Source: Synergistales bacterium (GTDB lineage Bacteria; Synergistota; Synergistia; Synergistales; JAFGMB01). From it: DNA of 64,000 bases. Positions 242 to 24,590 of this stretch are shown piece by piece. A program made the translations under genes and the position numbers. The stretch spans positions 1,984,001 to 2,048,000 of the forward strand of contig OY762654.1 in NCBI GenBank assembly GCA_963666205.1, read 5' to 3'. The notes beneath the pieces were generated by a model, which did no database searches, was not told the DNA's origin, and saw only the letters and a program-made list of their open reading frames with translations. Numbering within the stretch: position 1 is the stretch's first letter; every line of letters starts with the position of its first letter.

Positions 242-369
242 GAAAAAGTCTTTTCCGATTAACCCTGCATATTTTTCCGTTCCTTCTTATTTGCCATCAC
301 ACAAAGATCACTTTTCCTTTTAGCCTGTGTTTTTTCATCACTATATTTCTTTTTATGGAGGTCTTTTAT

Positions 370-1932
370 ATGAAGAGCAGTTGCAGCTCAGTTTCTTTTC
401 GACGTTCTACGGTCTGTATGTTGTTTGTATTTGTGTTGTTCGCATTTATTTCTTTTACGGGTATAGTGACAGCGGTTTATGCTGAAACCTTTATGGTTAC
501 TTCAACCACTGATGATGTATCGGATACAGGTTCACTGCGTTACGCTATCCAAAATGGAACAAGCCAGGATGTAATAACCTTTGACCTTGAATACCCGGCA
601 ACAATTACATTAGGCCAACAGCTTAGAATCGTTCATGGAATCACAATCCAGGGACCTGGAGCGCATCTGCTTGAAGTAAGTGGCAATGACGAATTCAGGG
701 TCTTTGACATTGCTTGTTTGCAGGAACCCGTTACCATATCAGGTATTTCCATCGTTAGAGGTCGTGGTAAGGGCGGCGGAATATACAACATCAATCCCTA
801 TCTTACTGTGACGAACTGCACCTTCAGTGGCAACGGAGAATCTAATGATGGCGGCGGAATATACAACGAAAGTTCCAGCCCTACCGTGACAAACTGCATA
901 TTTACCATGAACAGTGCTCCTGGTGGCGGAGGGATGTACAACGACCATTCCAGCCCTACCGTAACGAACTGTACTTTCAGTGACAATAAAGGTGATGGTG
1001 GCGGAATGTACAACTATCGATCCAGTCCCACCGTTACGAACTGTACTTTCTCTTCGAACGGAGGAGGGCTTGCTGGCGGCGGAATGTACAACGATGAGTC
1101 TCATCCTGCTGTGACGAACTGCACCTTCAGTAAGAACAGCACTGGAGAGTTTAGTCTAGGCGGCGGGATGTACAACGAAAGTTCCAACCCTACCGTGACG
1201 AACTGTACTTTCTCTTCGAACTTTGCATCGTATGGCGGCGGAATGTACAACACAAACTGTTCCAGCCCTACGTTGAAGAACTGCATCTTTTGGGCTGACT
1301 GGGGCGAGATATTTAACGCTAATGGATGTGTTTCAGATCTCAGTTACTGTATTGTGGAGAACTGGGATGTTAGAGGACCAATTACACTTTCAGGTCCGAT
1401 CTATTCGTCAGATCCCAAACTTGGTCCATTGGCTGATAACGGAGGTCAAACGCAGACTTGTGCTCTTATGCCTGGAAGTTCAGCTATAGATCAAGGCTTA
1501 ACAATCCATTTTCTTTCAACAGATCAGCGAGGAGTAGATAGGCCTCAATGTGCCAGTTTTGATATCGGTGCCTATGAATTGAAATGTTACGCCCTTACCA
1601 CCACCTGCAATAGCGGAGGCTGCATTCTTCCTGAATCAGCAGATGTTTTTGAAGGTGCGAACATGGACTTTTACATCTATCCGGAATCGGATTATGGTAT
1701 ATCTGGAGTCTATGTCGACGGGAATCCCGTTTCTTATGATGAATTAAACTGCTGTTACACCTTCCAGAGTGTCTCTTCTGACCATGTACTCAGTGCTGAT
1801 TTTCAACCAGGCGGTGATGACGATGATAATAATGGAGGTGTCGGTGGAGGGGGCTGCAGCATCTCTGCATTGCCTGCCATTGGCTTGTTCTTGTTGATGC
1901 CCCTTATGTTCCTGTCAGGAAGAAGGAAGTAA
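370..1932 (+). CDS. Secreted right-handed beta-helix (GGGxYN/NCTFxxN repeat) surface protein with choice-of-anchor Q-like domain, InlB B-repeat-like domain and Synerg-CTERM tail
   Basis: GGAGG RBS at 357-361 favours ATG 370. Signal peptide ending AVYA; repeats GGGMYN...PTVTNCTFS; LADNGGQT...GSSAID...DQRG..R...DIGAYE; C-terminal GGGGCSISALPAIGLFLLMPLMFLSGRRK. Confidence 0.85.
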   Translation: MKSSCSSVSFRRSTVCMLFVFVLFAFISFTGIVTAVYAETFMVTSTTDDVSDTGSLRYAIQNGTSQDVITFDLEYPATITLGQQLRIVHGITIQGPGAHLLEVSGNDEFRVFDIACLQEPVTISGISIVRGRGKGGGIYNINPYLTVTNCTFSGNGESNDGGGIYNESSSPTVTNCIFTMNSAPGGGGMYNDHSSPTVTNCTFSDNKGDGGGMYNYRSSPTVTNCTFSSNGGGLAGGGMYNDESHPAVTNCTFSKNSTGEFSLGGGMYNESSNPTVTNCTFSSNFASYGGGMYNTNCSSPTLKNCIFWADWGEIFNANGCVSDLSYCIVENWDVRGPITLSGPIYSSDPKLGPLADNGGQTQTCALMPGSSAIDQGLTIHFLSTDQRGVDRPQCASFDIGAYELKCYALTTTCNSGGCILPESADVFEGANMDFYIYPESDYGISGVYVDGNPVSYDELNCCYTFQSVSSDHVLSADFQPGGDDDDNNGGVGGGGCSISALPAIGLFLLMPLMFLSGRRK

Positions 1933-2005
1933 CAGCCCAGCTTAGATAAAGAGATACACCAGCTAGATTATAAAAAAGCCAAGCTCGATCCGGGCCTGGC
2001 TTTTT
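1852..2005 (+). repeat. 154-bp direct repeat copy 1 (sorting tail, stop, spacer and terminator)
   Basis: Matches 3939-4092 with one mismatch on direct reading. Confidence 0.95.
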
Positions 2006-2123
2006 TAATGGTCCTTGGAGAGTTCCATAAAATGATCGAATCAGTATCCAAAACCTGCCAGGAAGAATAATGCTTCGAGAACCCATTATATCAGACTGTT
2101 ACCCTTTCATTCGGTGAATTAAC

Positions 2124-2151
2124 TTGACGTTTAAATCACTGGTGCTAAGAT
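2124..2151 (+). promoter_or_regulatory. sigma70-type promoter with extended -10
   Basis: TTGACG-16 nt-TAAGAT with TG; same context (GGTGAATTAAC) as 214-241. Confidence 0.6.
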
Positions 2152-2285
2152 GACAATAGTCTTTTTCCCTGAACTGATTGATATTTTCCACCTTTCTTAT
2201 CTTTCCACCATAAACAAGGCAGATCCCCTCTTTCTTCGCTTTCCCGTTTTACGAACTGATATTCAATTTTAGGGAGGTACTTGAT

Positions 2286-4019
2286 ATGAAGGATTGCGGT
2301 AAGAGATATTTCCGGTATTCCGTTTCTTTAGCATTGCTTGTATTTCTGTTAGCTTTATTTATCAGTTTTTGGGGAACGGCAGGTTATGCTGTGACTTTTG
2401 CAGTTACCAACACGAATGATTCTGGGGAAGGTTCTTTGAGAGCAGCTATTGTGAGTGCTGATGTTTACGAGGATGTAATAAGTTTTGACTTTGCTACTTA
2501 CCCTCAAACCATAACCCTGGAGTCTGAACTGGAGATAAGCGGCGATAAGAGTTTGAAGATCCAGGGTCCTGGAGCGGATAAGCTTGTTATCAGCGGAAAC
2601 AAAAAATGCAGAGTCTTTTATATTGCTACCACGGCGTCCGTGGACATATCAGGCATTTCCATCGTGAGCGGGAGTGCAGATATGGGTGGTGGAATGTACA
2701 ACTATCGATCCAACCCAATTATAACTAACTGTATCTTCTCTGCTAACACTGCTTCTAACGATATTAATGCTACTGGCGGCGGAATGCTTAATCGGAATAG
2801 CAGTCCTATAGTTACCAACTGCACCTTCTCTGAAAACAGCTCGAGCGTTTATGGGGGTGGGATGGGCAACGATACAGGTTCCAGTCCCACAGTCAGTAAT
2901 TGTACCTTCAACTCGAACAGCGCTTCTATTGGAGGCGGGATGTGTAATTGGTATCTTTACACCTCACCATTTCTTAACTGCACCTTCTCTTCCAACACGG
3001 CAGGTCAGGGCGGAGGTATGTACAATTTCGAATCATTGCCCGAGTTAACCACTTGTACTTTCTCTGAAAACACCGCAACCCAGAGGGGTGGTGGAATGTA
3101 TAACTCAGTTTCAAGCCCAGATATGACGAACTGTACCTTCAACGGGAACACTGCAAATGATTATGGTGGAGGAATCTATAATTATTTATCTGATCCCACC
3201 GTGATTAAATGTACATTTTTTGAAAACCATGCGGCAAATCATGGCGGCGGAATGTGCAATTATGAATCCACTTTTCATGTTTCTGATTGCACCTTTGATA
3301 CCAACAGCGCAGACTATGGAGGCGGCATGTTTAACGATTTCAAGCCATCCTCTGCCGTTACAGTATCCACGGTAATCCAAGGCAGTACATTTACAAACAA
3401 CATCGGAGTTGAAAAAGGTGGAGCTATCTACAACGAATATGCAAAAACGGTTGAGATAATCAATTGCACCCTGATCTTGAATTCTGCTGAATATGGTGGA
3501 GGAATTTATAGTTATATTTCCAGCCCTGTCATTACTAACTGTACTTTGACTGGCAATACAGCAAATTCGGGAGTTTCCATGTACAGTAAAGAGTCTGAAC
3601 CTTTTGCAAGAAATTGCATTTTCTGGGAGGACAATGGAGTGGAGGTCGTAAACAGTCTCTCTAGTCCGGATATAGCTTTCTGTGTTGTGGAGAATCAGAT
3701 AACAGGAGCCACGAACATTTCAGATATTATTACTGCAGATCCAATGTTGGAAGCATTGGATGATAACGGAGGTCCAACATGGACCTGTGCCCTGGGAAGG
3801 GGCAGTTCTGCCATAGATGAGGGGACTGACTCAGGCAATATTCCTAATACTGACCAGAGAGGAATAGAAAGGCCCCAGGGTGCCGGTTATGACATTGGCG
3901 CCTTTGAAGTGGAACCATCTTCATCTGACACCAGTAGTGGCTGCAGCATCTCTGCATTGCCTGCCATTGGCTTGTTCTTGTTGATGCCCCTTATGTTCCT
4001 GTCAGGAAGAAGGAAGTAA
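2286..4019 (+). CDS. Secreted beta-helix surface protein with choice-of-anchor Q-like domain and Synerg-CTERM tail
   Basis: GGGAGG RBS; signal peptide ending AGYA; about a dozen GGGMxN/CTFxxN repeats; DDNGGPTWT...DQRGIERPQGAGYDIGAFE; tail identical to that of 370-1932. Confidence 0.88.
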   Translation: MKDCGKRYFRYSVSLALLVFLLALFISFWGTAGYAVTFAVTNTNDSGEGSLRAAIVSADVYEDVISFDFATYPQTITLESELEISGDKSLKIQGPGADKLVISGNKKCRVFYIATTASVDISGISIVSGSADMGGGMYNYRSNPIITNCIFSANTASNDINATGGGMLNRNSSPIVTNCTFSENSSSVYGGGMGNDTGSSPTVSNCTFNSNSASIGGGMCNWYLYTSPFLNCTFSSNTAGQGGGMYNFESLPELTTCTFSENTATQRGGGMYNSVSSPDMTNCTFNGNTANDYGGGIYNYLSDPTVIKCTFFENHAANHGGGMCNYESTFHVSDCTFDTNSADYGGGMFNDFKPSSAVTVSTVIQGSTFTNNIGVEKGGAIYNEYAKTVEIINCTLILNSAEYGGGIYSYISSPVITNCTLTGNTANSGVSMYSKESEPFARNCIFWEDNGVEVVNSLSSPDIAFCVVENQITGATNISDIITADPMLEALDDNGGPTWTCALGRGSSAIDEGTDSGNIPNTDQRGIERPQGAGYDIGAFEVEPSSSDTSSGCSISALPAIGLFLLMPLMFLSGRRK

Positions 4020-8458: not shown

Positions 8459-8893
8459 GTGAGAAAAGCTTTAGTTCCCATTGATACCAGTGCCATAAGC
8501 AGATCTCTTATCAGTTATGCTTTTGGATATGCCAGGAAAGAAGGTATTGAGAAGATCGACTTTCTCCATGTGATATCCAAACATGAACAGAGCTGGGATT
8601 ACAGGCTTGCAGAACTTGATGAAAGATTCCTGGCTGACTCCAGGGAACGTTTCATGTCCATGATCAAGGAGCAGATCGATAAAGGAGCAGATGGAGTGGA
8701 CTATGAGCTTGTGATAGCTTCTGGAGTGCCCTATAGCCAGATAGTTGAAAAGGCAGAGGAAGGCTACGACATAATTCTGATAGGTCACAGAGGCCTTAGC
8801 GATGTTGAGCGGTTCTTTATAGGAAGCGTTGCTGCAAAGGTGGTTCGTCATTCCCCATGTACTGTACTTGTCTATCATCCAAGGGAGGATTAA
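8459..8893 (+). CDS. Universal stress protein (UspA family)
   Basis: LVPIDTS, DIILIGHRGLSDVERFFIGSVAAKVVRHSPCTVLV; AGGAGG RBS. Confidence 0.93.
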   Translation: MRKALVPIDTSAISRSLISYAFGYARKEGIEKIDFLHVISKHEQSWDYRLAELDERFLADSRERFMSMIKEQIDKGADGVDYELVIASGVPYSQIVEKAEEGYDIILIGHRGLSDVERFFIGSVAAKVVRHSPCTVLVYHPRED

Positions 8894-9043
8894 TGGTGCT
8901 GGATTCGATCTTAAGAGAAAGATTTCAGATTTTACCCTGAAGGGACCGGAACAGGAATAAAGTTAGAGCCGGTCCCTTCTTACTGGATTCTATCCAGATC
9001 TTTTCAGCCAGTATTACACCCTCTGTTTTATATTCTCGCCAAG

Positions 9044-9093
9044 TTGACCCCATTTTCGGACTGAGATATAATATCGGATATCGTATCCGATAT
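9044..9093 (+). promoter_or_regulatory. sigma70 promoter overlapped by a palindromic operator (likely GntR autoregulation)
   Basis: TTGACC(9044-9049)-17 nt-TATAAT(9067-9072); ATATCGGATA-TCG-TATCCGATAT at 9071-9093. Confidence 0.75.
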
Positions 9094-9163
9094 CCGAAAA
9101 ATGAAAAATTCCTCATCAACACGTTTTGAATAATCACTGTGCATGTTAAAGGAGAGGGTAGAT

Positions 9164-9817
9164 ATGAAAAAGATCCCTACAATGGCAGAGGTTGTAATGA
9201 GAGATATCGAGAACAGGATAATGGAGGGTTCCTATTCACCTGGTCAGAAACTGAATGTGGATGAGTTGTCAAGGGAGCTCAACGTGAGCAAGACTCCTGT
9301 CAGGGAGGCCCTTGGAAGACTTGCCAGACAGGGCCTTGTTGAATCTCAGCCCAGGGTTGGATGGAGAGTTTCTCTTTTATCGGGGGAGGAATTCTTTCAG
9401 TTCCAGGAGATAAAACACCTTATCCGGTACTACCTTGCCAGTCATATCGCTCCCTACGTGTCAAAGATAAACTTCCAGAAGATCGAGGCCATGAACAGCA
9501 ATATGCACCATTTTACTAAAACGAGGCAGTTCGGCCGGCTTCTTGAGGAGAATGATAAATTCCATATGGAGATATTCGGAGTATACCCCAACAAAGTTCT
9601 CCTGGAATATCTCGATGAAGTAAGCAGTGCCATAAGATTACAGCGAATTTATATGCTGGAACAGAAACATCTTGACGAAGAGAGTCCCCTTATCGTTCAC
9701 GCGGCAAGAGAGCATGAGGATATTATCGAAGCTTTGAGAAAAGGTGACCAGGATGAAATACTGAGATCCTTTGAAAAACACCAGAGAACTATAAGGGAGT
9801 CATCTCACAACGAGTAG
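9164..9817 (+). CDS. GntR family regulator with FCD domain
   Basis: ELSRELNVSKTPVREALGRL HTH; C-terminal FH...EHEDIIEAL. ATG 9164 follows GGAGAGG. Confidence 0.92.
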   Translation: MKKIPTMAEVVMRDIENRIMEGSYSPGQKLNVDELSRELNVSKTPVREALGRLARQGLVESQPRVGWRVSLLSGEEFFQFQEIKHLIRYYLASHIAPYVSKINFQKIEAMNSNMHHFTKTRQFGRLLEENDKFHMEIFGVYPNKVLLEYLDEVSSAIRLQRIYMLEQKHLDEESPLIVHAAREHEDIIEALRKGDQDEILRSFEKHQRTIRESSHNE

Positions 9818-9845
9818 ATGATCCAGGAAGAAAAGGAGTGTTCAA

Positions 9846-12695
9846 ATGATCAGACCTGTATATGATCCAATGAAGGGAAGAATGAGGGTTGCAGCCCTCG
9901 CCTCCGGGTCAGGGAATACCCTGTGGAAAGTACATGATCTTCAACTGGAACTTGAAAAGACCTTTGAAGGCAGTACCTTTGAGGTAGTAGCCCTTTTTTC
10001 GGATAACCCAGGTTCAAAAGCGATTGAAACAGCAGGAGAAAGAGGTATTCCGGTCACTTCAATAGATATAAGGCAGTTCTATGCCGACAGGGAAAAACCT
10101 CTCAGGGACAGAGAAGTGAGAGCTGAGTTCGATAACCGCATAATGGATTTCTTCGAGCAGTATGATCCGGATGTGATCCTTCTGGCAGGTTATGTCTGGG
10201 CTACCACATCGGTAATTACAGGAAGTCTGCCGGTTATAAATGTACATCCTGCAGATCTTTCTGTTAAGGATAGCGATGGAGGAAGGGCATATGCAGGCGC
10301 TAACGGCGTTGGTGCTGCCCTTGCAGACAATGCACAGGAACTCCGGTCCAGTTCTCATCTGGCCACAGATGAGCTGGATGGAGGACCCATAATCCTTATA
10401 AGCCCGCCTGTTCCTGTCGATCAGGATCCTGGTATGGAAGAAAAGGAAAGATTCCGTAAATATCTGAAACTGGTGAATGAACAATCAAGGTCTACAGGGG
10501 CCAGAACGATCCTTGAAATATCACTTGGAAATTTTGGAAGAGATGAAAATGGTCTTCTTCACTATAAGGGAGATCCTGTTCCTGATGGAGTTAAATTGGA
10601 AAGCTGGAGTTCTTTTAAACCTCTCCATGAGAGGGATACTGAAAAACTTCTCAATCCCGGGAGTATTGCCGTTATTGGTGCTTCAGCCAAACCCGGGCTG
10701 GGTAATGCTGTTCTGAGGAACATCGTTGACTATGAATTCAATGGAAGTGTTTTTGCAGTAAATCGAAAAGGCGAAGATGTTCTGGGGGTCAGGGGATACA
10801 GAAGTGTAAAAGAGATCGAAGAGACTGTAGACCTGGCCCTTGTTACTGTACCTGCAAGTTTCGCTGTGGATGTCATAAAAGAGTGCGGAGAAAAGGGAGT
10901 AAGGGCAGTAGCGACCCTGACGGCCGGTTTCAGGGAAATGGGAGAAGAAGGGGCCAGAGCTGAATCTGAAATAATGGAGATCATTAACAGATACAATATG
11001 AGACTCCTTGGTCCCAACTGTATGGGCCTTCTTAATACCGACCCGCAGGTCAGACTTCATTCCAATATGCTTCAGAACATCCCTGCCAGGGGTCCCATAG
11101 GACTCATTACACAGAGTGGGGCCATCGGAGCGGCCATGCTTGACTGGGCCGAAGAGCTAGGTCTCGGATTTTCCATGATCACTTCCACGGGAAATCAGCC
11201 CGATCTCAACATCTGTGACCTTTTACCCCTCTATGCCCTGGACCCCGGAACGAAGGTCATTCTTGCATATCTTGAAATGATCCCTGAACCTGCGAGATTT
11301 GCAAGGATTCTTTCCAGGGTGAATAAAATTAAACCGGTCATTATCCTCAAGTCTGGAAGGACAGAGGCTGGTGCCGCCGCCGCAAGGTCTCACACGGGAA
11401 GTATGGCCGGAAATGAACAGATCGCTGAAGCACTTATCCAGAAGACAGGGGCTCTCAGGGTGAACACTCTGGAAGAAGCCTTTCTCCTGGCTTCGGCCCT
11501 CGGACGGATGCCGAAAGTGAGAGGCAACCGGGTGGGAATCATAAGCAATGCGGGTGGGCCAGGTACCCTTGTGGCCGACGCCCTCCATGATCTGGGTTTT
11601 GAACTCCCGGTTCTTTCCGATGAACTGAGAGACAGTCTGGCAAAGGACATTCTTCCCCAGGCTTCGACTGCGAATCCCCTTGATCTTGTTGCCACTGCTG
11701 CGCCTGAACATTATGGCAAAGCTTCCGGACTTATGGCGGAAAGCGGCATATACGATGCGCTTATAGTTATAATGGTACCCCCCGTAACTGTAGAGACAGG
11801 TTCCGTGGCCCAGGCCATGATCGATTCTCTCAAGGATATCGATATTCCTGTCCTTACTTGTTTCTTCGGCCCTAAAATGGGTAGAGCCGGGCGTAATGTC
11901 ATGCTTGAAGGTAAGATACCCTCTTTCCCCTTTCCTGAACAGACTGCTCAGGTCCTCAACCTCATGAGAGAGACAGAAACACCGGAAAAAGATGCAGCAG
12001 CTTACCCCTCCGCGGTTCCAGCTAGAGAACTAAAGAATACCAGGTCCCTTTTCAAAGGGACTGCCGGTACTTTTCTCCCCCCGGAAAAGTGCCAGACCCT
12101 GCTCATGTCATATGGATTCAAGGTAGCAAGATCCATTCTGGTGTTATCCCCTCAGGAGGTTGATGGCCTGGACTTGAAATTTCCTGTAGTTGCGAAGATA
12201 GATCACAGCGATATTATTCATAAATCCGATAGCGGGGGGGTTATTCTTGACATTGCCGATAAAGGCTCTCTTAAAAAGGTAGTAACCGAAATGTTTTCAA
12301 AGTTTCCCGGGGCAAGGGGTGTGCTGGTACAGGAACAGGTTTGCGGAAATGTGGAGGTGATACTTGGAGCGAAAAGTGACCCGGCCCTTGGTCATGTCGT
12401 TCTGGCTGGCTATGGTGGAGTTGGGGTTGAGGTATTTAAGGATGTGTCACTGGGTCACGTTCCCTTCGACGGGGTAAGTGCCCGGAAGATGCTGAAAGAC
12501 CTGAAGTGTTACCGGATCCTGGAAGGATACAGGGGAAAGCCGGGAGTGGACCTTGAAAACCTAGAAGACCTCATAATGAAAATGCAGGGTCTTCTTATCA
12601 GTAATCCCGAAATAGAAGAGATGGACCTGAATCCCCTTATCTTTGACGGTAAGGAATTTATCGTAGCCGATTACAGGATAAAGATAGCAGGTTAA
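9846..12695 (+). CDS. Fusion: PurN-like formyltransferase plus ADP-forming acyl-CoA synthetase (alpha+beta)
   Basis: N-terminal ~250 aa: ASGSGNTL, INVHPADL, ELDGGPII. Remainder: PGSIAVIGAS, LLGPNCMG, TQSGA, SHTGS, SNAGGPG, NPLDL, IHKSDSGGV, MDLNPL. Confidence 0.85.
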   Translation: MIRPVYDPMKGRMRVAALASGSGNTLWKVHDLQLELEKTFEGSTFEVVALFSDNPGSKAIETAGERGIPVTSIDIRQFYADREKPLRDREVRAEFDNRIMDFFEQYDPDVILLAGYVWATTSVITGSLPVINVHPADLSVKDSDGGRAYAGANGVGAALADNAQELRSSSHLATDELDGGPIILISPPVPVDQDPGMEEKERFRKYLKLVNEQSRSTGARTILEISLGNFGRDENGLLHYKGDPVPDGVKLESWSSFKPLHERDTEKLLNPGSIAVIGASAKPGLGNAVLRNIVDYEFNGSVFAVNRKGEDVLGVRGYRSVKEIEETVDLALVTVPASFAVDVIKECGEKGVRAVATLTAGFREMGEEGARAESEIMEIINRYNMRLLGPNCMGLLNTDPQVRLHSNMLQNIPARGPIGLITQSGAIGAAMLDWAEELGLGFSMITSTGNQPDLNICDLLPLYALDPGTKVILAYLEMIPEPARFARILSRVNKIKPVIILKSGRTEAGAAAARSHTGSMAGNEQIAEALIQKTGALRVNTLEEAFLLASALGRMPKVRGNRVGIISNAGGPGTLVADALHDLGFELPVLSDELRDSLAKDILPQASTANPLDLVATAAPEHYGKASGLMAESGIYDALIVIMVPPVTVETGSVAQAMIDSLKDIDIPVLTCFFGPKMGRAGRNVMLEGKIPSFPFPEQTAQVLNLMRETETPEKDAAAYPSAVPARELKNTRSLFKGTAGTFLPPEKCQTLLMSYGFKVARSILVLSPQEVDGLDLKFPVVAKIDHSDIIHKSDSGGVILDIADKGSLKKVVTEMFSKFPGARGVLVQEQVCGNVEVILGAKSDPALGHVVLAGYGGVGVEVFKDVSLGHVPFDGVSARKMLKDLKCYRILEGYRGKPGVDLENLEDLIMKMQGLLISNPEIEEMDLNPLIFDGKEFIVADYRIKIAG

Positions 12696-12760
12696 TACAA
12701 CGAACATGTACTCTCAAGACCAGCAGTTCAGAATAAATTATTTTGCCAGGAGGTAATTCG

Positions 12761-13978
12761 ATGGGATACAGAGAAGATGGTAAATGGTGGGTTTCACCGG
12801 CTAATTATACGGAAGAAGTTACAGGTAATTACAACTTCGCTGAAAAGATCGAGATTCTTGATACGACCCTGAGGGATGGAGAGCAGCAGCCCGGGATCAT
12901 TTTTACCAGGGACGAAAAGGTCTCTATTGCCAGGAAACTGTCGGAGGTCGGAGTTCACAGGATAGAAGCAGGAACACCCGCGGCATCCCAGGAAGATGCA
13001 GATGCCATAAAGGCGATCGTTGACGAGGGGCTTGATTCGAAGATATTCTGTTTTTCCCGCAATATGGTAAAGGACATGGAACTGGCAAAATCCCTTGGAG
13101 TACATGGGGTTCTTGCCGAGATGATCGGAAGCGAGCAGATGCTCAGATACGGGAAAAAATGGACCCCGGAACAGGCCATTGAAGCATGTGTTGAGGCTAC
13201 CCGGGCTGCTCATGAAATGGGTATGTATGTCACCTTTTTCCCTGCAGATGGCTCGAGAGCAGAATTGAATTATCTTCTTGACTTTGTACAGGCAGTAGCT
13301 GAGGGCGGACACATCGATTCACTCGCACTGGTGGATACCTTCGGAACTTTCTCTCCGGAAGGTGCAGCCTTCATGGTAAGAAAACTCAAGGAGAGATTCG
13401 ATTTTCCGATAGAGGCACATTTCCACAGTGATTACGATCTTGGTGTCGCAACTACTCTTGCCGCCCTTGTGGCTGGAGCAGAAGTGGCTCATGTAACTGT
13501 CAACGGGATAGGCGAACGGGCAGGAAGTGCACCTCTTGGCGCTGTAGCCCTTTCCCTGGAGGCTCTTTACGGTCAGAAAACCGGGATCAGACTTGAAAAA
13601 CTGAAGGAACTTTCAGAAATGGTGGTTGAATACTCAAGGTTCCCGGTATGGCCCATTAAAGCAGTTGACGGAGATCGTCTATTCGGATGGGAAACAGGAC
13701 TTCCATCAAGTCTTTGGGTAAATGCAAAGGAAACCAATCCCCTTATAATGCTGCCCTATCACTATACTCTGACGGGTCAGCAGGAGCCTGTCCTTTATCT
13801 TGGAAAGAAAAGCGGTAAGGATAATCTGAAATACTGGCTGGATAAGGCTGGTGTGGAAATAGACGATAACCAGCAGAAGGAACTTCTGCAGATGGTGAAG
13901 GCAAGGTCTATAGAGATGAAGAGGGATCTTGACATGGATGATTTTAAATCCCTGCTGAGTGCCCTTGGATCAAGGTAG
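12761..13978 (+). CDS. DRE-TIM metallolyase, LeuA/homocitrate-synthase-like (no LeuA regulatory domain)
   Basis: DTTLRDGEQQPG, HFHSDYDLG, VNGIGERAG, LGKKSG; AGGAGG RBS before ATG 12761. Confidence 0.85.
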   Translation: MGYREDGKWWVSPANYTEEVTGNYNFAEKIEILDTTLRDGEQQPGIIFTRDEKVSIARKLSEVGVHRIEAGTPAASQEDADAIKAIVDEGLDSKIFCFSRNMVKDMELAKSLGVHGVLAEMIGSEQMLRYGKKWTPEQAIEACVEATRAAHEMGMYVTFFPADGSRAELNYLLDFVQAVAEGGHIDSLALVDTFGTFSPEGAAFMVRKLKERFDFPIEAHFHSDYDLGVATTLAALVAGAEVAHVTVNGIGERAGSAPLGAVALSLEALYGQKTGIRLEKLKELSEMVVEYSRFPVWPIKAVDGDRLFGWETGLPSSLWVNAKETNPLIMLPYHYTLTGQQEPVLYLGKKSGKDNLKYWLDKAGVEIDDNQQKELLQMVKARSIEMKRDLDMDDFKSLLSALGSR

Positions 13979-13987
13979 ATCAGAGCC

Positions 13988-15148
13988 ATGTCGGCTGTGA
14001 AGATAGCAGAAAGATTTTCAGATCTGCAGCCTTCTCTGATGGTCAAGGTCTTTCGCGCTGCTGCCCAGGTGGAGGATCTCTCGAATCTTGGAATTGGAGA
14101 GCCGGACTTCAATACTGAACCCGACATAGTGGATGCTGCTGCAAGGGCTGGTAAAGAGGGTTTTACCCATTATCCGCCCCTCCCCGGTTTTCTTGATCTG
14201 AGGCAGGAAATATGTTCCTGGTGGGATAAAAAATACGGACTGAAATCGGTCCCGGATGAGGTATTTGTCACCACAGGAGGCATCCAGTCACCATTTCTTC
14301 TTTTCCAGGCCATACTGGATCCGGGAGATGAGGTTATTGTGACTGAACCTTGTTTTGTCGCCTACTTTCAACAGGTTGAATATAACGGAGGCAGAGTGGT
14401 TACGGTTCCATGTTTCGAGGAGAACGGCTTCAAGCCCATGGCAGAGGATATAGAAAAGGCAATCACTCCCAGGACCAGGGCCATCATGCTGAATTCCCCC
14501 TGTAATCCGACAGGAGCTGTAATTGACCGCGTGGAGCTGGAAAAGATCGCTGCAGTGGTGAAGAAACATGATCTCTTTGTCGTATCTGATGAAATCTATG
14601 AGTCTATCCTTTTCGAGGGAGAACATGTTCCCTTTGCGACCCTTCCGGGAATGAAGGAAAGAACCATGACTGTAGGAGGTTTTTCCAAGTCCCATGCCAT
14701 GACTGGATGGCGTATAGGTTATGCCATTGCTCCTCGTGAGATCCTCAGCCTGATGCAGGTCCTGAGCATTGTTCAATCTTTTGGAGTTAATTCTCTTGCC
14801 CAGAAAGCAGCCCTTTATGCCTTGAAAACACAGGAGAAAAAGGTCATGGAGAGAAGGGACATCTTCAGGGAGAGGGTTGACTATACGCTGGGGCGTCTTA
14901 ATGCAATACCTGGGATCAGCTGTCTGAAACCGGGAGGATCCTTCTATCTCTTCCCCAATATAAGCGGAACAGGAATGAATTCAGAAGAATTCACATTCTG
15001 GCTTCTCGAGAAGGCTAAGGTTGCAGTTATACCCGGTATCTCATTCGGAAAGAGTGGTGAAGGTTATGTAAGGATATCCTGCGCCATGTCCCTGAAAGAT
15101 CTGGAGAAGGCCATGGACAGGATGGAGAATGCTCTGAAAAACAGGTAA
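13988..15148 (+). CDS. Class I/II PLP-dependent aminotransferase (aspartate-aminotransferase-like)
   Basis: GIGEPDF, NSPCNPTG, SDEIY, GFSKSHAMTGWRIG. Confidence 0.93.
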   Translation: MSAVKIAERFSDLQPSLMVKVFRAAAQVEDLSNLGIGEPDFNTEPDIVDAAARAGKEGFTHYPPLPGFLDLRQEICSWWDKKYGLKSVPDEVFVTTGGIQSPFLLFQAILDPGDEVIVTEPCFVAYFQQVEYNGGRVVTVPCFEENGFKPMAEDIEKAITPRTRAIMLNSPCNPTGAVIDRVELEKIAAVVKKHDLFVVSDEIYESILFEGEHVPFATLPGMKERTMTVGGFSKSHAMTGWRIGYAIAPREILSLMQVLSIVQSFGVNSLAQKAALYALKTQEKKVMERRDIFRERVDYTLGRLNAIPGISCLKPGGSFYLFPNISGTGMNSEEFTFWLLEKAKVAVIPGISFGKSGEGYVRISCAMSLKDLEKAMDRMENALKNR

Positions 15149-15208: not shown

Positions 15209-16561
15209 ATGGATAATAAGGGTAAGAGAGATCAGTTCACTTCCGGTTTTGGATTTGTTCTGGCCTCAGCTGGTTCTGCGATCGGTCTGGGAAATATATG
15301 GCGCTTCCCCTATATGACGGGGACTAATGGTGGAGGAGCTTTCGTACTCCTGTACCTTGCAATAGTTCTTCTGGTGGGTGCGACCCTGCTTCTTGTCGAG
15401 TTCACCATTGGCCGCCATGGTCAGGCAAATGCTGTTGCCAGTTATGGCAAAATAAGTAAACCCTTCAAGTGGATAGGTTATCTCGGGGTCTTTACATCCT
15501 TTCCCCTTCTCGCCTATTACGCAGTCGTAGGCGGATGGACCATCTATTACTCCGTGCAGTCAGCTCTGGGTAAGTTGACCAGCGTTCCTGCAGATCAGAT
15601 GGGAGCATTCTTTGGAGGGTTCATAGGTTTAGTTACATCACCGATCATTTACCTGGCCATTTTTCTTATCTTCACCCTTCTCATTGTGGCAAAGGGTATC
15701 TCTGGAGGTATCGAAAAATGGAGCAAGATCCTTATGCCAGCCATGTTCGTGCTTCTTGTCATTCTTCTGGTAAGGTCTGTCACCCTTCCGGGAGCCATGG
15801 AAGGTGTCAAATGGTACCTTAAACCTGATTTCTCCAAGATCAACGGGTCAGTCGTTGTAGCAGCCCTTGGTCAGGCCTTTTTCTCCCTGAGTGTGGGATT
15901 GTCCGGAATGGTTACCTATGGTTCCTACCTGTCAAAGAAAGAGAACCTCACCACCAACACCCTTACCGTTGTTGGTTTCGATACTCTCATAGCTATCCTT
16001 GCCGGTTTTGTAGTATTCCCTGCCGTATTTGCCTTCTCCATGGAGCCCGGCGGTGGACCCGGTCTTGTGTTTATAACCCTTCCCCAGGTTTTCAGTAAAA
16101 TGCCTATGGGGGCCTTTTTCTCCGCATCTTTCTTCCTTCTCCTGCTCTTTGCTGCCCTTACCTCATCCATTTCTATCATGGAAGTTTCCATATCCTACTT
16201 TACTGAAAGCTTCGAGGTATCCCGCAGGCAGATGTCATGGGTATACGGAATAATCGTATTTGCCCTTGCCATACCTGTTTCTCTCAGTTTTGGTATATGG
16301 GGAGATGTCTCTATCCTCGGAAAGGGCATTTTTGACCTTTACGATTACTTCTGCGCCAATCTGGCCCTTCCCTTCTGTGCCTTCATGTGTGCCATTCTCG
16401 TTGGCTGGGTATGGGGCAGGGATAAAGCAATGGCAGAACTTACCAACAATGGAACCATCGATAACTGGTATATACGGATATGGTTCCCCCTTGTAAAGTA
16501 TGTTTCACCCCTTGTCGTAGGACTTATTCTGCTTAACGCTATAGGGGTTCTGAAATTCTAG
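15209..16561 (+). CDS. Sodium-dependent transporter, NSS/SNF family
   Basis: GSAIGLGNIWRFPY, GGGAF, QAFFSLS, GPGLVF. Confidence 0.95.
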   Translation: MDNKGKRDQFTSGFGFVLASAGSAIGLGNIWRFPYMTGTNGGGAFVLLYLAIVLLVGATLLLVEFTIGRHGQANAVASYGKISKPFKWIGYLGVFTSFPLLAYYAVVGGWTIYYSVQSALGKLTSVPADQMGAFFGGFIGLVTSPIIYLAIFLIFTLLIVAKGISGGIEKWSKILMPAMFVLLVILLVRSVTLPGAMEGVKWYLKPDFSKINGSVVVAALGQAFFSLSVGLSGMVTYGSYLSKKENLTTNTLTVVGFDTLIAILAGFVVFPAVFAFSMEPGGGPGLVFITLPQVFSKMPMGAFFSASFFLLLLFAALTSSISIMEVSISYFTESFEVSRRQMSWVYGIIVFALAIPVSLSFGIWGDVSILGKGIFDLYDYFCANLALPFCAFMCAILVGWVWGRDKAMAELTNNGTIDNWYIRIWFPLVKYVSPLVVGLILLNAIGVLKF

Positions 16562-22278: not shown

Positions 22279-23403
22279 CTAGAACCAGTGTGGCTCGTCC
22301 CAGAGCTTAAGTTCCTGGCCTATACCTTTTTTGAGGGCATTCTGATAAACACTATATCCCCATGCCACATCTTCAACAGGCATTCCACCAGTTATAAATA
22401 CTATCTTTTCCTTGTCATCTTTTCTGCCCGGGACTTTACCGCATGCTATATCCCCAAGGCTTCTTATGTCTTCGTGCTTCATTTTTTGATCAAGTATCAG
22501 TTGAATAACAGGAGCCGAAGGGGCCCAGGTTAGAATACTTTCGATTCCCTGGGGATGTTCTTCTCCTTCAGTCATCCATGCCTGGTGCATTTTCCAGTTA
22601 TCAGCTATTACTGTATTGTCCAGGTAGCAGTCGTCGCTCAATTCCGCGGTCCCTGTGAGGGTAAGGAGAGCACCTTCCTTGAGCCATTCTGTGGGAATAG
22701 TGGCCTTTTTTGCACCGGCAGTGGCAATGCTTATAACGTCTGCTTTTCTTATGCATTCTTCAAGAGAGTCTACCGGAGTTACCTTGAGCCCAGTGACCTT
22801 CTCCATTTCTTCTTTAAATGCAATTGATTTCTCCGGGAAAATATCGTAAATCAGGGCTTCTTCAAGAGAAGGAGTTCCTTCGGCAATGGCCATGAGACAG
22901 GCCCTGCTTATTACTCCAGCTCCGACTACACCACATACCTTGGAATCCTTGCGGGCTAGATATTTAGCAGCTACTCCCGGCACGGAACCTGTTCTCATCG
23001 CACTGATAAGGTTGCCGGACATTATGGCCAGAGGTTCTGAAGTGACGGCATCGTTTAGCATTACTGTAAGAATAGATCTTGGCAGGCCGGATTTTGGATT
23101 TTCAATATTTGAACCATACCATTTTTCACCGCATACGTTGAATCTTCCTCCAAGATAGGTAACCATTGCCATGAACCTTCTATCCGGACCATTGACGGGC
23201 ATATTGGGAAAACGTTTTTCTTCAGGGAACCATATCATCAGGCCATGTTCATTTTCCCTGGGGCCGCCCATCAAATAGTCACCCTCGCCAAGGAGATGAA
23301 AAGCTTCATCTATTACCTTGACGCACTCTTTCATATCCAAGACCCCGGCTTCTATCATTTCAGGTTCTGAAAGATATAAAAACTTTACTTCTTTTCCCTT
23401 CAT
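22279..23403 (-). CDS. Ornithine cyclodeaminase/mu-crystallin family oxidoreductase (paralogue A)
   Basis: DRRFMAM..YLGG, GEKWYGSN, LISAMRTG, GAGVIS, GGMPVEDVAWG. Confidence 0.9.
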   Translation of the reverse strand: MKGKEVKFLYLSEPEMIEAGVLDMKECVKVIDEAFHLLGEGDYLMGGPRENEHGLMIWFPEEKRFPNMPVNGPDRRFMAMVTYLGGRFNVCGEKWYGSNIENPKSGLPRSILTVMLNDAVTSEPLAIMSGNLISAMRTGSVPGVAAKYLARKDSKVCGVVGAGVISRACLMAIAEGTPSLEEALIYDIFPEKSIAFKEEMEKVTGLKVTPVDSLEECIRKADVISIATAGAKKATIPTEWLKEGALLTLTGTAELSDDCYLDNTVIADNWKMHQAWMTEGEEHPQGIESILTWAPSAPVIQLILDQKMKHEDIRSLGDIACGKVPGRKDDKEKIVFITGGMPVEDVAWGYSVYQNALKKGIGQELKLWDEPHWF

Positions 23404-23465
23404 AATAAAAACCTCCTTTATGAAATAATTATCCAGAATCAGTTGCTGAAATTGAGTTGTTTATT

Positions 23466-24590
23466 TTAGAACCAGTGAGGTTCGTTCCAGAGTTTAAGCT
23501 CTTGTCCGATGCCTTTCTTCAAGGCATTCTGATATACGGTGAAACTCCATGCCAGATCCTCGGTCGGCAGGCCCCCGGTTATACATACGGTTCTTTCCCT
23601 GCTGTTTTCCCTACCAGGTTTTTTGCCGGAAATAATATCGCCAAGGCTTACCACGTCGTCGTCTTTCATCTTTCCATCCTTAATATATTTAAAGAGGTAT
23701 TTGCTAGCCAGACCAAAATGTTTTTCAATGTCAAGGCCTTTAAGTTCTTCTCTGAAAGCCATATGCATTTTCCAATGGTCTACCACGACTTTTTCCGGTA
23801 CATTCAATAGATAATCGGGTTCAAATGATACACCAGCAGGAAGGGCCAGGTATGCCCCTTCTTTTACCCATTCCGGTTTGATATGTGGTGAAGCCTTTCC
23901 TGAAGCTGCCACATTTATTACATCTGATCCCACCACACACTCTTCAAGAGAGCCGACGGGGTGGACATTAAGGCCAAGTTCTTTAGACATCTCTTCACAG
24001 AAAGAAGCAGCCCTTTCCTGGTTAAGATCAAAGACTTTGACCTCTTCCAGATCTTTAAGGACATATGCGAGGGACATGAGAGAAGCTTTACTGATTACAC
24101 CTGCAGCGACAATACCTGCAACTTTAGAGTCAGGTCTTGCAAGGTATCTTGCACCTACTCCCGGGATGGCTCCTGTTCTCATTGCGCTGACAAGATTTCC
24201 CGACATGAAAGCAAGGGGTTCTGAGGTATCGGGGTCGTTCAAAATGATGTTGAGGATAGATCGGGGTAGTCCTCTTGAAGGGTTGATTATATGTGAGCCG
24301 TACCATTTTTCTCCGCACACATTGAATTTTCCCCCCAGATAGCCAACCATGGCCATGAATCTTCTGTCAGGTCCAAGCACTGGCATATTAGGGAATTCAG
24401 ATGTTTCCGGGAACTCAATTTTGATCCCATGAGAATTCCGGGAAGCTCCTCCAAGAAGATAGTCGCCTTTTCCCATAAGATCGAACATCTCTACCATCGT
24501 TTCTACACATTGGCCCATATCAAGGACACCTGCTTCGATCATATCTTCCTCTGAGAGGAAAAGAAACTTGACACTTTTACCTTTTACCAT
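23466..24590 (-). CDS. Ornithine cyclodeaminase/mu-crystallin family oxidoreductase (paralogue B, tandem duplicate of A)
   Basis: DRRFMAMVGYLGG, GEKWYGSH, VSAMRTGA, GGLPTEDLAW; C-terminus near-identical to paralogue A. Confidence 0.9.
   Translation of the reverse strand: MVKGKSVKFLFLSEEDMIEAGVLDMGQCVETMVEMFDLMGKGDYLLGGASRNSHGIKIEFPETSEFPNMPVLGPDRRFMAMVGYLGGKFNVCGEKWYGSHIINPSRGLPRSILNIILNDPDTSEPLAFMSGNLVSAMRTGAIPGVGARYLARPDSKVAGIVAAGVISKASLMSLAYVLKDLEEVKVFDLNQERAASFCEEMSKELGLNVHPVGSLEECVVGSDVINVAASGKASPHIKPEWVKEGAYLALPAGVSFEPDYLLNVPEKVVVDHWKMHMAFREELKGLDIEKHFGLASKYLFKYIKDGKMKDDDVVSLGDIISGKKPGRENSRERTVCITGGLPTEDLAWSFTVYQNALKKGIGQELKLWNEPHWF

Follow-up and report, generated by a model that had tools for sequence, protein, structure and literature searches.

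A conserved fusion of a PurN-like formyltransferase with an ADP-forming acyl-CoA synthetase in a putative catabolic operon of anaerobic bacteria

PurN-type formyltransferases and ADP-forming acyl-CoA synthetases (ACDs) are both textbook families, and a locus of Synergistales bacterium raises the question of what a single protein composed of the two could do. The locus is located in a 64,000-nucleotide stretch of contig OY762654.1 (positions 1,984,001 to 2,048,000), referred to here as the window. The gene encodes 949 amino acids in one ATG-started frame with no internal stop, as proposed in an initial annotation made from the DNA letters. On sequence evidence, the fusion is a conserved bifunctional enzyme in a conserved operon. 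Its pairing with an isopropylmalate synthase (IPMS)-like protein, designated HMGL*, defines a conserved and so far uncharacterised pathway. As the best explanation found, the fusion would be the energy-harvesting end of an inducible operon for catabolism that has a patchy distribution among anaerobes.

The motifs named in the initial annotation all sit in the translation as stated: SGSGN at residues 20-24, INVHP at 131-135, ELDGGP at 176-181, SHTGS at 515-519, and HKSD at 792-795. Pfam places Formyl_trans_N at residues 13-186 (46.2 bits, cut-off 26.1), CoA_binding_2 at 273-397, Succ_CoA_lig at 415-552, Ligase_CoA_2 at 563-697, and ATP-grasp_5 at 742-947 (182 bits). The PurN-like part was accurately estimated at about 250 residues; the unit reaches approximately residue 265 because of a conserved C-terminal helix/hairpin extension. 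A model of the full-length fusion is confident as a single body (pLDDT 88.7, pTM 0.86).

The fusion gene is genuine, with conservation across phyla and a patchy distribution within one phylum. The junction between the halves (around nucleotides 10600-10660) is bridged by metagenome contigs from two other studies, X4 record 9 (9378-10933) and X6 record 16 (9100-11163). Both are approximately 98% identical to the window and cross positions 10600-10650, where a check of read coverage had been proposed, with no indel within the fusion open reading frame (ORF). Contigs of metatranscriptome X10 cover 9227-11480 and 11687-12260, though contigs from an RNA library are no proof of transcription, and no X10 contig spans the junction by 31 nt on both sides; the uncovered parts of X10 and X9 carry no weight.

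A protein search with residues 1-265 against full-length-sized proteins returns 187 matches at E<=1e-3. All of the best 120 share an identical Pfam architecture and are about 945 aa long. Source names among these matches include Synergistaceae, Thermovirga lienii, and Oscillospiraceae. By record titles, carriers beyond Synergistota belong to Oscillospiraceae, Lachnospiraceae, Tissierellaceae, and Spirochaetaceae, and the assemblies behind the carrier loci and run records are of gut, digester, sludge, and sediment origin. Cultured carriers among the records are Thermovirga lienii DSM 17291 and Lactonifactor longoviformis DSM 17459. Within the window's own phylum, 24 of 268 genomes, spread over 12 of 76 genera, have the PurN-like domain; of the 176 genomes with a completeness of at least 90%, 15 have it. 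Nearly all copies are within frames of 945-965 aa. Database names for the homologues are generic, e.g., 'acetate--CoA ligase family protein', 'CoA-binding domain protein', or a composite JGI label. The architecture was not recognised as characterised in the initial annotation, and literature searches, whose scope was papers without their supplementary files, gave no description of a PurN-like or other formyltransferase fused to an ADP-(NDP-)forming acyl-CoA synthetase. Searches on kynurenine, anaerobic, and ADP-forming gene clusters likewise yielded no paper on the fusion architecture, and no formyltransferase domain is present in the characterised ACD-family proteins that surfaced.

Gene context was analysed at 90 loci: the window, 9 genome-contig loci, and 80 metagenome-contig loci. 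A full-length fusion is present at 55 loci, and at 15 the fusion gene is cut by the contig end. Six loci have an N-domain ORF followed directly by an ACD ORF, eight have a free-standing PurN-like ORF of 195-279 aa without an adjacent ACD, three are unparsable, and three are classed as 'other'. Among the adjacent pairs, L132, L148, and L149 look like clean natural splits, with a PurN-like gene of 264-301 aa, about 27 nt, and an ACD gene of 682-691 aa; L139, L152, and L159 look like frameshifts in low-coverage contigs. The split pair at L148:9989-12858 (same coordinates in L149) clusters with a 2-hydroxyacid dehydrogenase, DASS and TRAP transporters, and two Abhydrolase_3/BD-FAE hydrolases. The free-standing PurN-like protein is found in otherwise complete clusters without an ACD at L115, L119, L124, L126, and probably L136, while L140, L155, and L157 are too short for judging. 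The two halves are separable but always operon-linked. The initial annotation had considered that the fusion might be unique to this assembly or that relatives might encode two unlinked genes. It is not unique, and the halves are indeed separate in some relatives, yet never unlinked from the operon.

Conservation was scored on the 55 full-length copies after alignment. The halves are equally conserved, with a median identity to the window protein of 53% for the N-terminal half and 50% for the ACD half, and the fusion is under selection. The PurN-like half possesses a phosphate-type loop (S20-G-S-G-N-T25), an N132-x-H134 motif, D137, and a folate-type TDELDGGP motif containing D178. S20-G-S-G23, H134, D137, and D178 are invariant in 55/55 copies; N132 is Asn in 46 and Gly in 9. 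The AlphaFold model of this domain has a pLDDT of 92. Its top Foldseek matches are GAR transformylases, the best being E. coli PurN (1cde; 25% identity, E 2.4e-16, TM 0.88 for the target), and PurU and ArnA rank below them. In a HMMER alignment to E. coli PurN (1c2t), SGNGSNL corresponds to SGSGNTL in the fused domain, LAGFM to LAGYV, and NIHPSLL to NVHPADL, while TDELDGGP is identical. Thus, the fold, the phosphate-type loop, the N-x-H motif, and TDELDGGP are shared with E. coli PurN. The differences are an identity of only about 25%, an 8-residue insertion after HPADLS that is conserved in the family and absent from E. coli PurN, a C-terminal extension of about 60 residues, and a non-purine operon. 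In addition, the PurN Ser after His-Pro is Ala or Gly in the fused domain and is followed by the invariant Asp137.

The fused domain scores 65.4 bits on TIGR00639, the PurN equivalog, which is below the cut-off of 150.1. A separate purN was looked for and is present elsewhere in the genome (a single contig of 2.95 Mb) within a canonical purF-purM-purN-purH row; its product scores 191.2 bits against the cut-off of 150. This makes the fused domain a divergent, second PurN-like copy. An fmt-like gene is also encoded, and no purine genes are found in the fusion clusters examined. In a profile search, the fused domain belongs to a wider 'long PurN' subfamily, mostly free-standing proteins of 250-290 aa that share its C-terminal extension, with 2524 matches at E<=1e-3 and 122 at E<=1e-30 among 1.84 billion representatives. 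Sixteen proteins from the best 150 were given to Pfam: one is a PurD fusion (GARS_N/A/C) and six are fused to 5-formyl-tetrahydrofolate cyclo-ligase (P0234, P0240, P0241, P0245, P0292, P0298, and P0313 for both types together). These fusions indicate that the subfamily is folate-linked and probably includes true GAR transformylases. The source name of one long PurN points to a Pacearchaeota archaeon.

Formyl_trans_N-type domains are also found beside a CoA or phosphopantetheine site in HypX and in 10-formyl-tetrahydrofolate dehydrogenase (FDH). For these, PMC6802093 proposes formyl transfer from 10-formyl-tetrahydrofolate (10-formyl-THF) to the thiol of CoA or phosphopantetheine, and for HypX it describes a His/Asp pair with a second Asp that fixes the catalytic His. 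The fusion may resemble the HypX N-terminal domain and the FDH hydrolase domain in this arrangement, with H134, D137, and D178 invariant and a CoA enzyme as the fused partner. It differs in having an ACD in place of a crotonase-like decarbonylase or an aldehyde dehydrogenase, and in that the domain is nearest to PurN in both sequence and structure.

The ACD half is complete, as claimed in the initial annotation. Its subdomain order is CoA-binding, flavodoxin-like with the swinging-loop His516, CoA-ligase, and ATP-grasp with His792. H516, H792, and K793 are invariant in 55/55 copies, and K784 and E925/D927/N929 are kept in 54-55. The second (ATP-grasp) His, H792 of HKSD, presumably has its usual role. 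The nearest NCBIfam models are ADP-forming hydroxy-acid and acetate CoA ligases (460-467 bits, cut-offs 567-1300), and the half falls below every cut-off of the substrate-specific equivalogs for acetate, 3-hydroxypropionate, and 4-hydroxybutyrate. The Nitrosopumilus 4-hydroxybutyrate-CoA ligase 8wzu aligns end to end (381 bits, residues 267-945), and other PDB matches are 2csu of P. horikoshii and ACD1 of Ca. Korarchaeum (4xyl). All three have five subdomains in single-chain order with both His kept, as in the fusion, but lack the N-terminal formyltransferase domain. This order and the role of the swinging-loop His are described for 4-hydroxybutyrate-CoA ligase in PMC11494057. An ACD body with a second acyl chemistry is also seen in Pat-type acetyltransferases (9it0, 9isq) and the DMSP lyase DddX (7cm9), which match at 242-281 bits. 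Pat has the opposite order, with a GNAT module at the C-terminus, and DddX has no extra module, whereas the fusion has an N-terminal module and both ACD His. Pat presumably has no catalytic His.

HMGL* is the most constant partner of the fusion. Its start is probably the conserved Met at residue 7 (nucleotide 12761). It is most closely related to homocitrate and isopropylmalate synthases (6ktq, 178 bits), and the best NCBIfam model is NF002085 (306.5 bits, cut-off 517), with HMGL* below all cut-offs. A protein-cluster search returns generic 'HMGL-like/LeuA family' clusters only. HMGL* was aligned to the Brassica methylthioalkylmalate synthase (MAMS) 6e1j (BjMAMS), and residues were tallied in 57 orthologues, retained from 63 after a filter for 395-435 aa. 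The 2-oxo-acid/metal site of MAMS (R89, D90, Q93, T257, H288, H290) is kept in 57/57 as R44, D45, Q48, T199, H226, and H228. Four other MAMS residues are replaced in 57/57: Glu227 by Ala/Ser168, His388 by Pro321, Tyr399 by Asn/Asp332, and His383 by Trp316. In PMC11532901, His388 is the proposed general base that enolises acetyl-CoA, the arrangement is stated to be conserved in IPMS, and the mutants E227A, H388A, and Y399S have no activity. In the side-chain pocket, MAMS V182, E223, A253, and P255 (PMC8468904) correspond to L124, T164, A195, and V197. HMGL* therefore shares with isopropylmalate, homocitrate, citramalate, and methylthioalkylmalate synthases an HMGL-like barrel, a post-barrel subdomain, and the Arg-Asp...Thr...His-x-His site. 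Unlike these synthases, it has no equivalents of Glu227, His388, and Tyr399, its pocket is altered, and it is extended at the N-terminus by a conserved KWWVSP.NY stretch. F104 and E126 are invariant.

Within the phylum, HMGL* orthologues form a separate score class (at least 634 bits, paralogues at most 464) found in 25 genomes. By hand comparison of the lists, 23 genomes have both HMGL* and the PurN-like domain, 1 has the domain only, 2 fragmented genomes have HMGL* only, and 242 have neither. A complex prediction for HMGL* and the PurN-like domain scores 0.00 and has no bearing either way. Three paralogues in the same genome score 365-430 bits: G000:C1:2303087-2304283 (L168), 1579024-1580205 (L169), and 1886191-1887366 (L170). 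Each lies in a module of its own that combines a regulator and a transporter with an aminotransferase or a 2-hydroxyacid dehydrogenase. Of the 41 ORFs in their surroundings, 31 were scanned. One context has GntR/FCD, a 2-hydroxyacid dehydrogenase, and TRAP; a second has a 2-oxoacid:ferredoxin oxidoreductase, succinyl-CoA-synthetase-like genes, TRAP, and an aminotransferase; a third has GntR/FCD, an aminotransferase, and an NhaC-type transporter. The second module also has a TctC-type receptor. The paralogues look like part of a whole uncharacterised IPMS-like clade in amino-acid and organic-acid catabolism, which would handle 2-oxo acids from imported amino or hydroxy acids, by cleavage or by condensation.

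The operon of the window has intergenic gaps of 9-60 nt (Table 1). For comparison across the 90 loci, ORFs were clustered by all-against-all BLASTP with antisense shadows flagged, and Pfam covered 74 of 121 neighbour ORFs in one set and 27 of 45 in another. Thirty-nine loci have at least 3 kb on both sides. Orthologous HMGL* is present at 38 of these, the exception being L104. An aminotransferase is present at 27/39, an aminotransferase or a dehydrogenase at 35/39, a listed transporter at 34/39, and a MerR+HTH_3+cupin or GntR regulator at 33/39.

Table 1. Features of the fusion locus (window coordinates)
Feature	Position	Strand	Remarks
Promoter-like TTGACC-17-TATAAT	9044-9072	+	11/12 positions; upstream of regulator gene
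Perfect palindrome, 10-bp arms, TCGGATATCG....CGATATCCGA	9074-9097	+	just after the -10-like box, 46 nt before the GntR start
GntR/FCD regulator	9143..9817	+	first operon gene; Pfam GntR + FCD
PurN-like/ACD fusion ORF	9846-12695	+	ATG start, 949 aa, no internal stop
PurN-like formyltransferase half	9846..10640	+	residues 1-265; Pfam, NCBIfam, AlphaFold, Foldseek
ACD (ADP-forming acyl-CoA synthetase) half	10641..12695	+	residues 266-949; Pfam, PDB matches
HMGL* (atypical IPMS/homocitrate-synthase-like DRE-TIM protein)	12743..13978	+	Pfam HMGL-like
Class-I (AspAT/aromatic-AT-like) aminotransferase	13988..15148	+	Pfam; best PDB matches P. horikoshii 1gd9, 1dju
SNF-family Na+-dependent (amino-acid-type) symporter	15209..16561	+	last operon gene; Pfam SNF 247 bits; NCBIfam Na_transp

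Over all 90 loci, the orthologous GntR/FCD regulator is directly upstream of the fusion at 16, and in other lineages (41 loci) the MerR+HTH_3+cupin regulator replaces it. An aminotransferase is within the cluster at 51. Two front ends are observed. The first is composed of an SNF symporter (35/90 loci) or an APC permease with an aminotransferase. The second is composed of TRAP DctPQM (16-19/90), DASS, or MFS with a D-2-hydroxyacid dehydrogenase (10/90) and/or SDRs (8/90). This alternation suggests a shared 2-oxo-acid intermediate made from an amino acid or a hydroxy acid. Less frequent members are a second plain ACD beside the fusion (10/90), Abhydrolase_3/BD-FAE hydrolases (5/90), DUF2889 (5/90), and kynureninase-like genes at five loci (L091, L092, L095, L146, L156), in the same operon in L146 and L156.

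A formate-THF ligase (FTHFS) gene is present in five clusters (L006, L012, L094, L128, L146) in at least four gene orders; it directly follows the fusion in L128 and L146 and accompanies a formate/nitrite-family channel in L006. Two further FTHFS genes are located elsewhere in the window's genome, at G000:C1:846360-848018 (-) and 1116685-1118343 (+). They score identically (915 bits, 563-aa frames), so a recent duplication or a repeated region is possible. If the halves acted serially on formyl-CoA, the net reaction would be that of FTHFS, 10-formyl-THF + ADP + Pi = formate + ATP + THF, carried out by an unrelated fold. The coexistence of FTHFS genes with the fusion, in this genome and in the five clusters, argues against simple redundancy.

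The near-constant IPMS-like partner in an aminotransferase/transporter operon places the fusion in a probable substrate-breakdown pathway, and the importers, ligand-type regulators, and patchy distribution suggest that the operon is catabolic. The suggestion of the initial annotation that the fusion could couple C1 metabolism to ATP stands in part: the evidence, including FTHFS in 5/90 clusters, supports a folate/C1 link short of proof, while a free-standing coupler of formate and formyl-THF does not fit. A tentative reading is a catabolic module in which a 2-oxo acid is cleaved with CoA, its formyl group is passed to THF by the PurN-like half, and ATP is formed by the ACD half. The Na+-symporter would import an amino acid, or, in the variants, TRAP, DASS, or MFS transporters would import a 2-hydroxy acid, as their families suggest. 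The aminotransferase, or a D-2-hydroxyacid dehydrogenase or SDR, would then yield the 2-oxo acid. The metal of HMGL* would hold this acid at the retained Arg/Asp/Thr/His-x-His site. Because the residues that enolise acetyl-CoA are lost, HMGL* would not act as an alkylmalate synthase and would cleave instead. In a retro-Claisen type of reaction with CoA as acceptor, the adjacent C-C bond would be broken to give an enolate (e.g., of pyruvate) and a formyl-bearing CoA thioester. A non-enolisable or pre-formed acyl group would need no His388 in HMGL*.

The PurN-like half would transfer the formyl group to THF from one of two donors that have roughly equal odds. The first is formyl-CoA, which has a HypX/FDH-type precedent and fits the invariant D137 near H134. 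The second is an N-formyl-aminoacyl-CoA, the CoA analogue of FGAR, which suits the PurN-type phosphate loop and amine chemistry and would make the two halves sequential. The ACD half, with its catalytic residues in place, would convert the residual acyl-CoA, ADP, and Pi to the acid and ATP. Finally, 10-formyl-THF could give a second ATP via FTHFS with export of formate, as suggested by the FTHFS and channel genes in some clusters and the two FTHFS genes elsewhere in the genome.

Several observations weigh against this catabolic module. The N-domain is structurally closest to the amine-formylating PurN, neither FDH nor HypX has an entry among its listed Foldseek matches, and the Asn of N-x-H is Gly in the nine copies noted above. 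The predicted retro-Claisen role of HMGL* is based on residue loss, with no positive signature. All three paralogues have also lost the equivalents of His388, Glu227, and Tyr399 in other contexts, and the clade may use another base and still condense acetyl-CoA, like Re-citrate synthase. FTHFS is limited to the five clusters. With formyl-CoA as the carrier, the two halves would compete for it, which makes for an odd fusion. Moreover, the 4-5 clusters with a PurN-like protein and no ACD mean that the halves need not share an intermediate, and models in which one is channelled between them are weakened. The PurN-like protein is tied closest to HMGL* and the aminotransferase, and the ACD is frequent but dispensable.

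Among the alternatives, the fusion could activate formate, which is essentially the idea of the initial annotation. The ACD half would act as a ligase on formate and ATP, with or without CoA, to form formyl phosphate or formyl-CoA, and the PurN-like half would charge THF or N-formylate an amine, as an analogue of FTHFS or PurT. ACD reactions are reversible and proceed via an acyl phosphate, as described in PMC11494057; all nucleotide-site and His residues of the ACD are kept, the PurN-type loop could hold phosphate, and FTHFS and the formate channel are present in some clusters. This biosynthetic role is nonetheless unlikely. The genome already has two FTHFS genes and a canonical PurN, and an FTHFS beside an FTHFS analogue would be redundant. 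Importers, substrate-type regulators, and patchy distribution point to catabolism, and the most conserved neighbours (HMGL*, the aminotransferase, and the dehydrogenases) are left without a role.

HMGL* could also remain a Claisen-type synthase that uses another base, similar to Re-citrate synthase or malate synthase, with the ACD serving its acyl-CoA and the PurN-like half performing an unrelated or minor side reaction. The closeness of HMGL* to homocitrate and isopropylmalate synthases is consistent with this, as are the paralogue contexts, which look like simple 'oxo acid + acetyl-CoA' modules. The chances of a synthase are likewise small, since the Glu, His, and Tyr required in MAMS/IPMS are missing in all 57 orthologues tallied, and the clusters examined show neither an isomerase nor a dehydrogenase suited to processing an alkylmalate. 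The PurN-like protein, a constant companion even where no ACD is encoded, is left unexplained.

Each half might instead perform its canonical reaction independently, as a spare GAR transformylase and an ordinary ADP-forming acetyl-CoA synthetase that uses acetyl-CoA from the pathway. All PurN catalytic and folate motifs are kept, the long PurN subfamily, in view of its fusion to PurD, includes likely true GAR transformylases, the ACD half scores highest on acetate and hydroxy-acid CoA ligase models, and clusters without an ACD are expected if Pta-AckA substitutes. Two spare activities are nevertheless quite improbable: the pur operon of the same genome supplies a canonical PurN, the fused domain is far under the PurN cut-off with no purine gene in the clusters examined, identity of about 50% is kept across phyla in a non-purine context, and 10 loci have a second plain ACD.

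A non-catalytic PurN-like half, acting as a sensor of folate or a phosphorylated ligand that regulates the ACD half, is very unlikely. The Gly variants of N132 and the presence of second modules on the ACD scaffold (9it0/9isq, with the DMSP lyase 7cm9 also among the PDB matches) would suit a sensor, but His134, Asp137, and Asp178 are invariant, and the domain is also free-standing in the same operon with no ACD to regulate. An assembly or annotation artefact that joins two genes is refuted by the two indel-free bridging contigs, the 55 full-length copies, and the confident single-body model.

For the catabolic module, a more specific version is an oxygen-independent, doubly energy-conserving route for formamide-bearing gamma-oxo amino acids, with N-formylkynurenine/kynurenine as the model substrate. 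A KAT-type aminotransferase would form the 2,4-dioxo acid, which HMGL* and CoA would cleave to pyruvate and N-formyl-anthraniloyl-CoA. The fusion would act as a 'reverse GAR transformylase' on this FGAR-like CoA thioester, giving 10-formyl-THF and ATP via FTHFS, while the ACD half would turn the aminoacyl-CoA into ATP. It is the only scheme found that accounts for the kynureninase-like gene, the Abhydrolase_3/BD-FAE hydrolase, FTHFS, the formate channel, the second ACD, and the aminotransferase. The Firmicutes-type aminotransferase (L006:8792-9985) has PH0207/1x0m as its best PDB match (324 bits), with human KAT-II at 187 bits; PH0207 is presumably a kynurenine aminotransferase. These matches and the kynureninase-like genes of the clusters appear to support kynurenine as a substrate. 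The scheme as a whole is still doubtful, with a low probability: formation of formylkynurenine requires oxygen, the TRAP/dehydrogenase variants do not fit, and carriers are found in sediment-type habitats.

Kynureninase-like genes (Aminotran_5 + KYNU_C) are present in 64 of 268 genomes of this anaerobic phylum. By hand comparison, 15 of 24 fusion-positive and 49 of 244 fusion-negative genomes have a KYNU_C match, a difference that is confounded by relatedness, leaves 9 carriers without a match, and is not used as evidence. In one genus (G064, G065, G067, G068), the gene is located about 6.5 kb from the fusion. The window genome's own copy, G000:C1:1939758-1940036 (L167:8810-10099), lies 54 kb away, next to a MarR regulator, and adds no information.

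Other substrates were considered and dropped. Glycine/glyoxylate with glycolate, serine/hydroxypyruvate, aspartate/oxaloacetate decarboxylation, and ring-opened histidine lack fit or evidence. For 2-oxoglutarate, the residues that bind the distal carboxylate in homocitrate synthase are F104 and T164 in HMGL*. Capture of formaldehyde from homoserine was dropped, as PurN chemistry is at the formyl level. Breakdown of pantoate/ketopantoate fits the variants with TRAP and two dehydrogenases but not the amino-acid version of the window.

If the catabolic module is true, fermenters would have a new ATP gain, from a formyl group and a thioester, via non-oxidative C-C cleavage. It would also give the DRE-TIM/IPMS family a new reaction type and a PurN-type enzyme a role outside purine synthesis, and it would be a natural source of enzymes for the formyl-CoA/formyl-THF interconversions wanted by synthetic C1 pathways. 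Under any model, thousands of 'acetate--CoA ligase family protein' or '2-isopropylmalate synthase' labels would need re-annotation.

The promoter-like site and the palindrome upstream of the GntR gene may be the operon promoter and operator. This is a weak lead, as a promoter/terminator scan of the region shows no excess of sites over shuffles (for promoter-like sites, 11 against a mean of 10.2). The spacer between gntR and the fusion is 5 nt longer in two other metagenome strains, through an AAGAA insertion at 9827. In the Tissierellaceae-type locus L010, a FlK-like (fluoroacetyl-CoA-type) hotdog thioesterase (2195-2590, -) and an FGGY-family kinase (8674-9960, +) are beside the fusion and HMGL*, a hint that this variant may involve a CoA-thioester intermediate and a substrate resembling a sugar acid.

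Elsewhere in the window, positions 22279-24590 (-) encode two tandem ornithine-cyclodeaminase/mu-crystallin paralogues of 374 aa each, which are above the cut-off for PRK06199 'tyramine oxidase subunit B' and are flanked by an EamA transporter and a Glt_symporter-like gene. Positions 355-4019 (+) encode two large secreted-type proteins with right-handed beta-helix and Chlam_PMP repeats.

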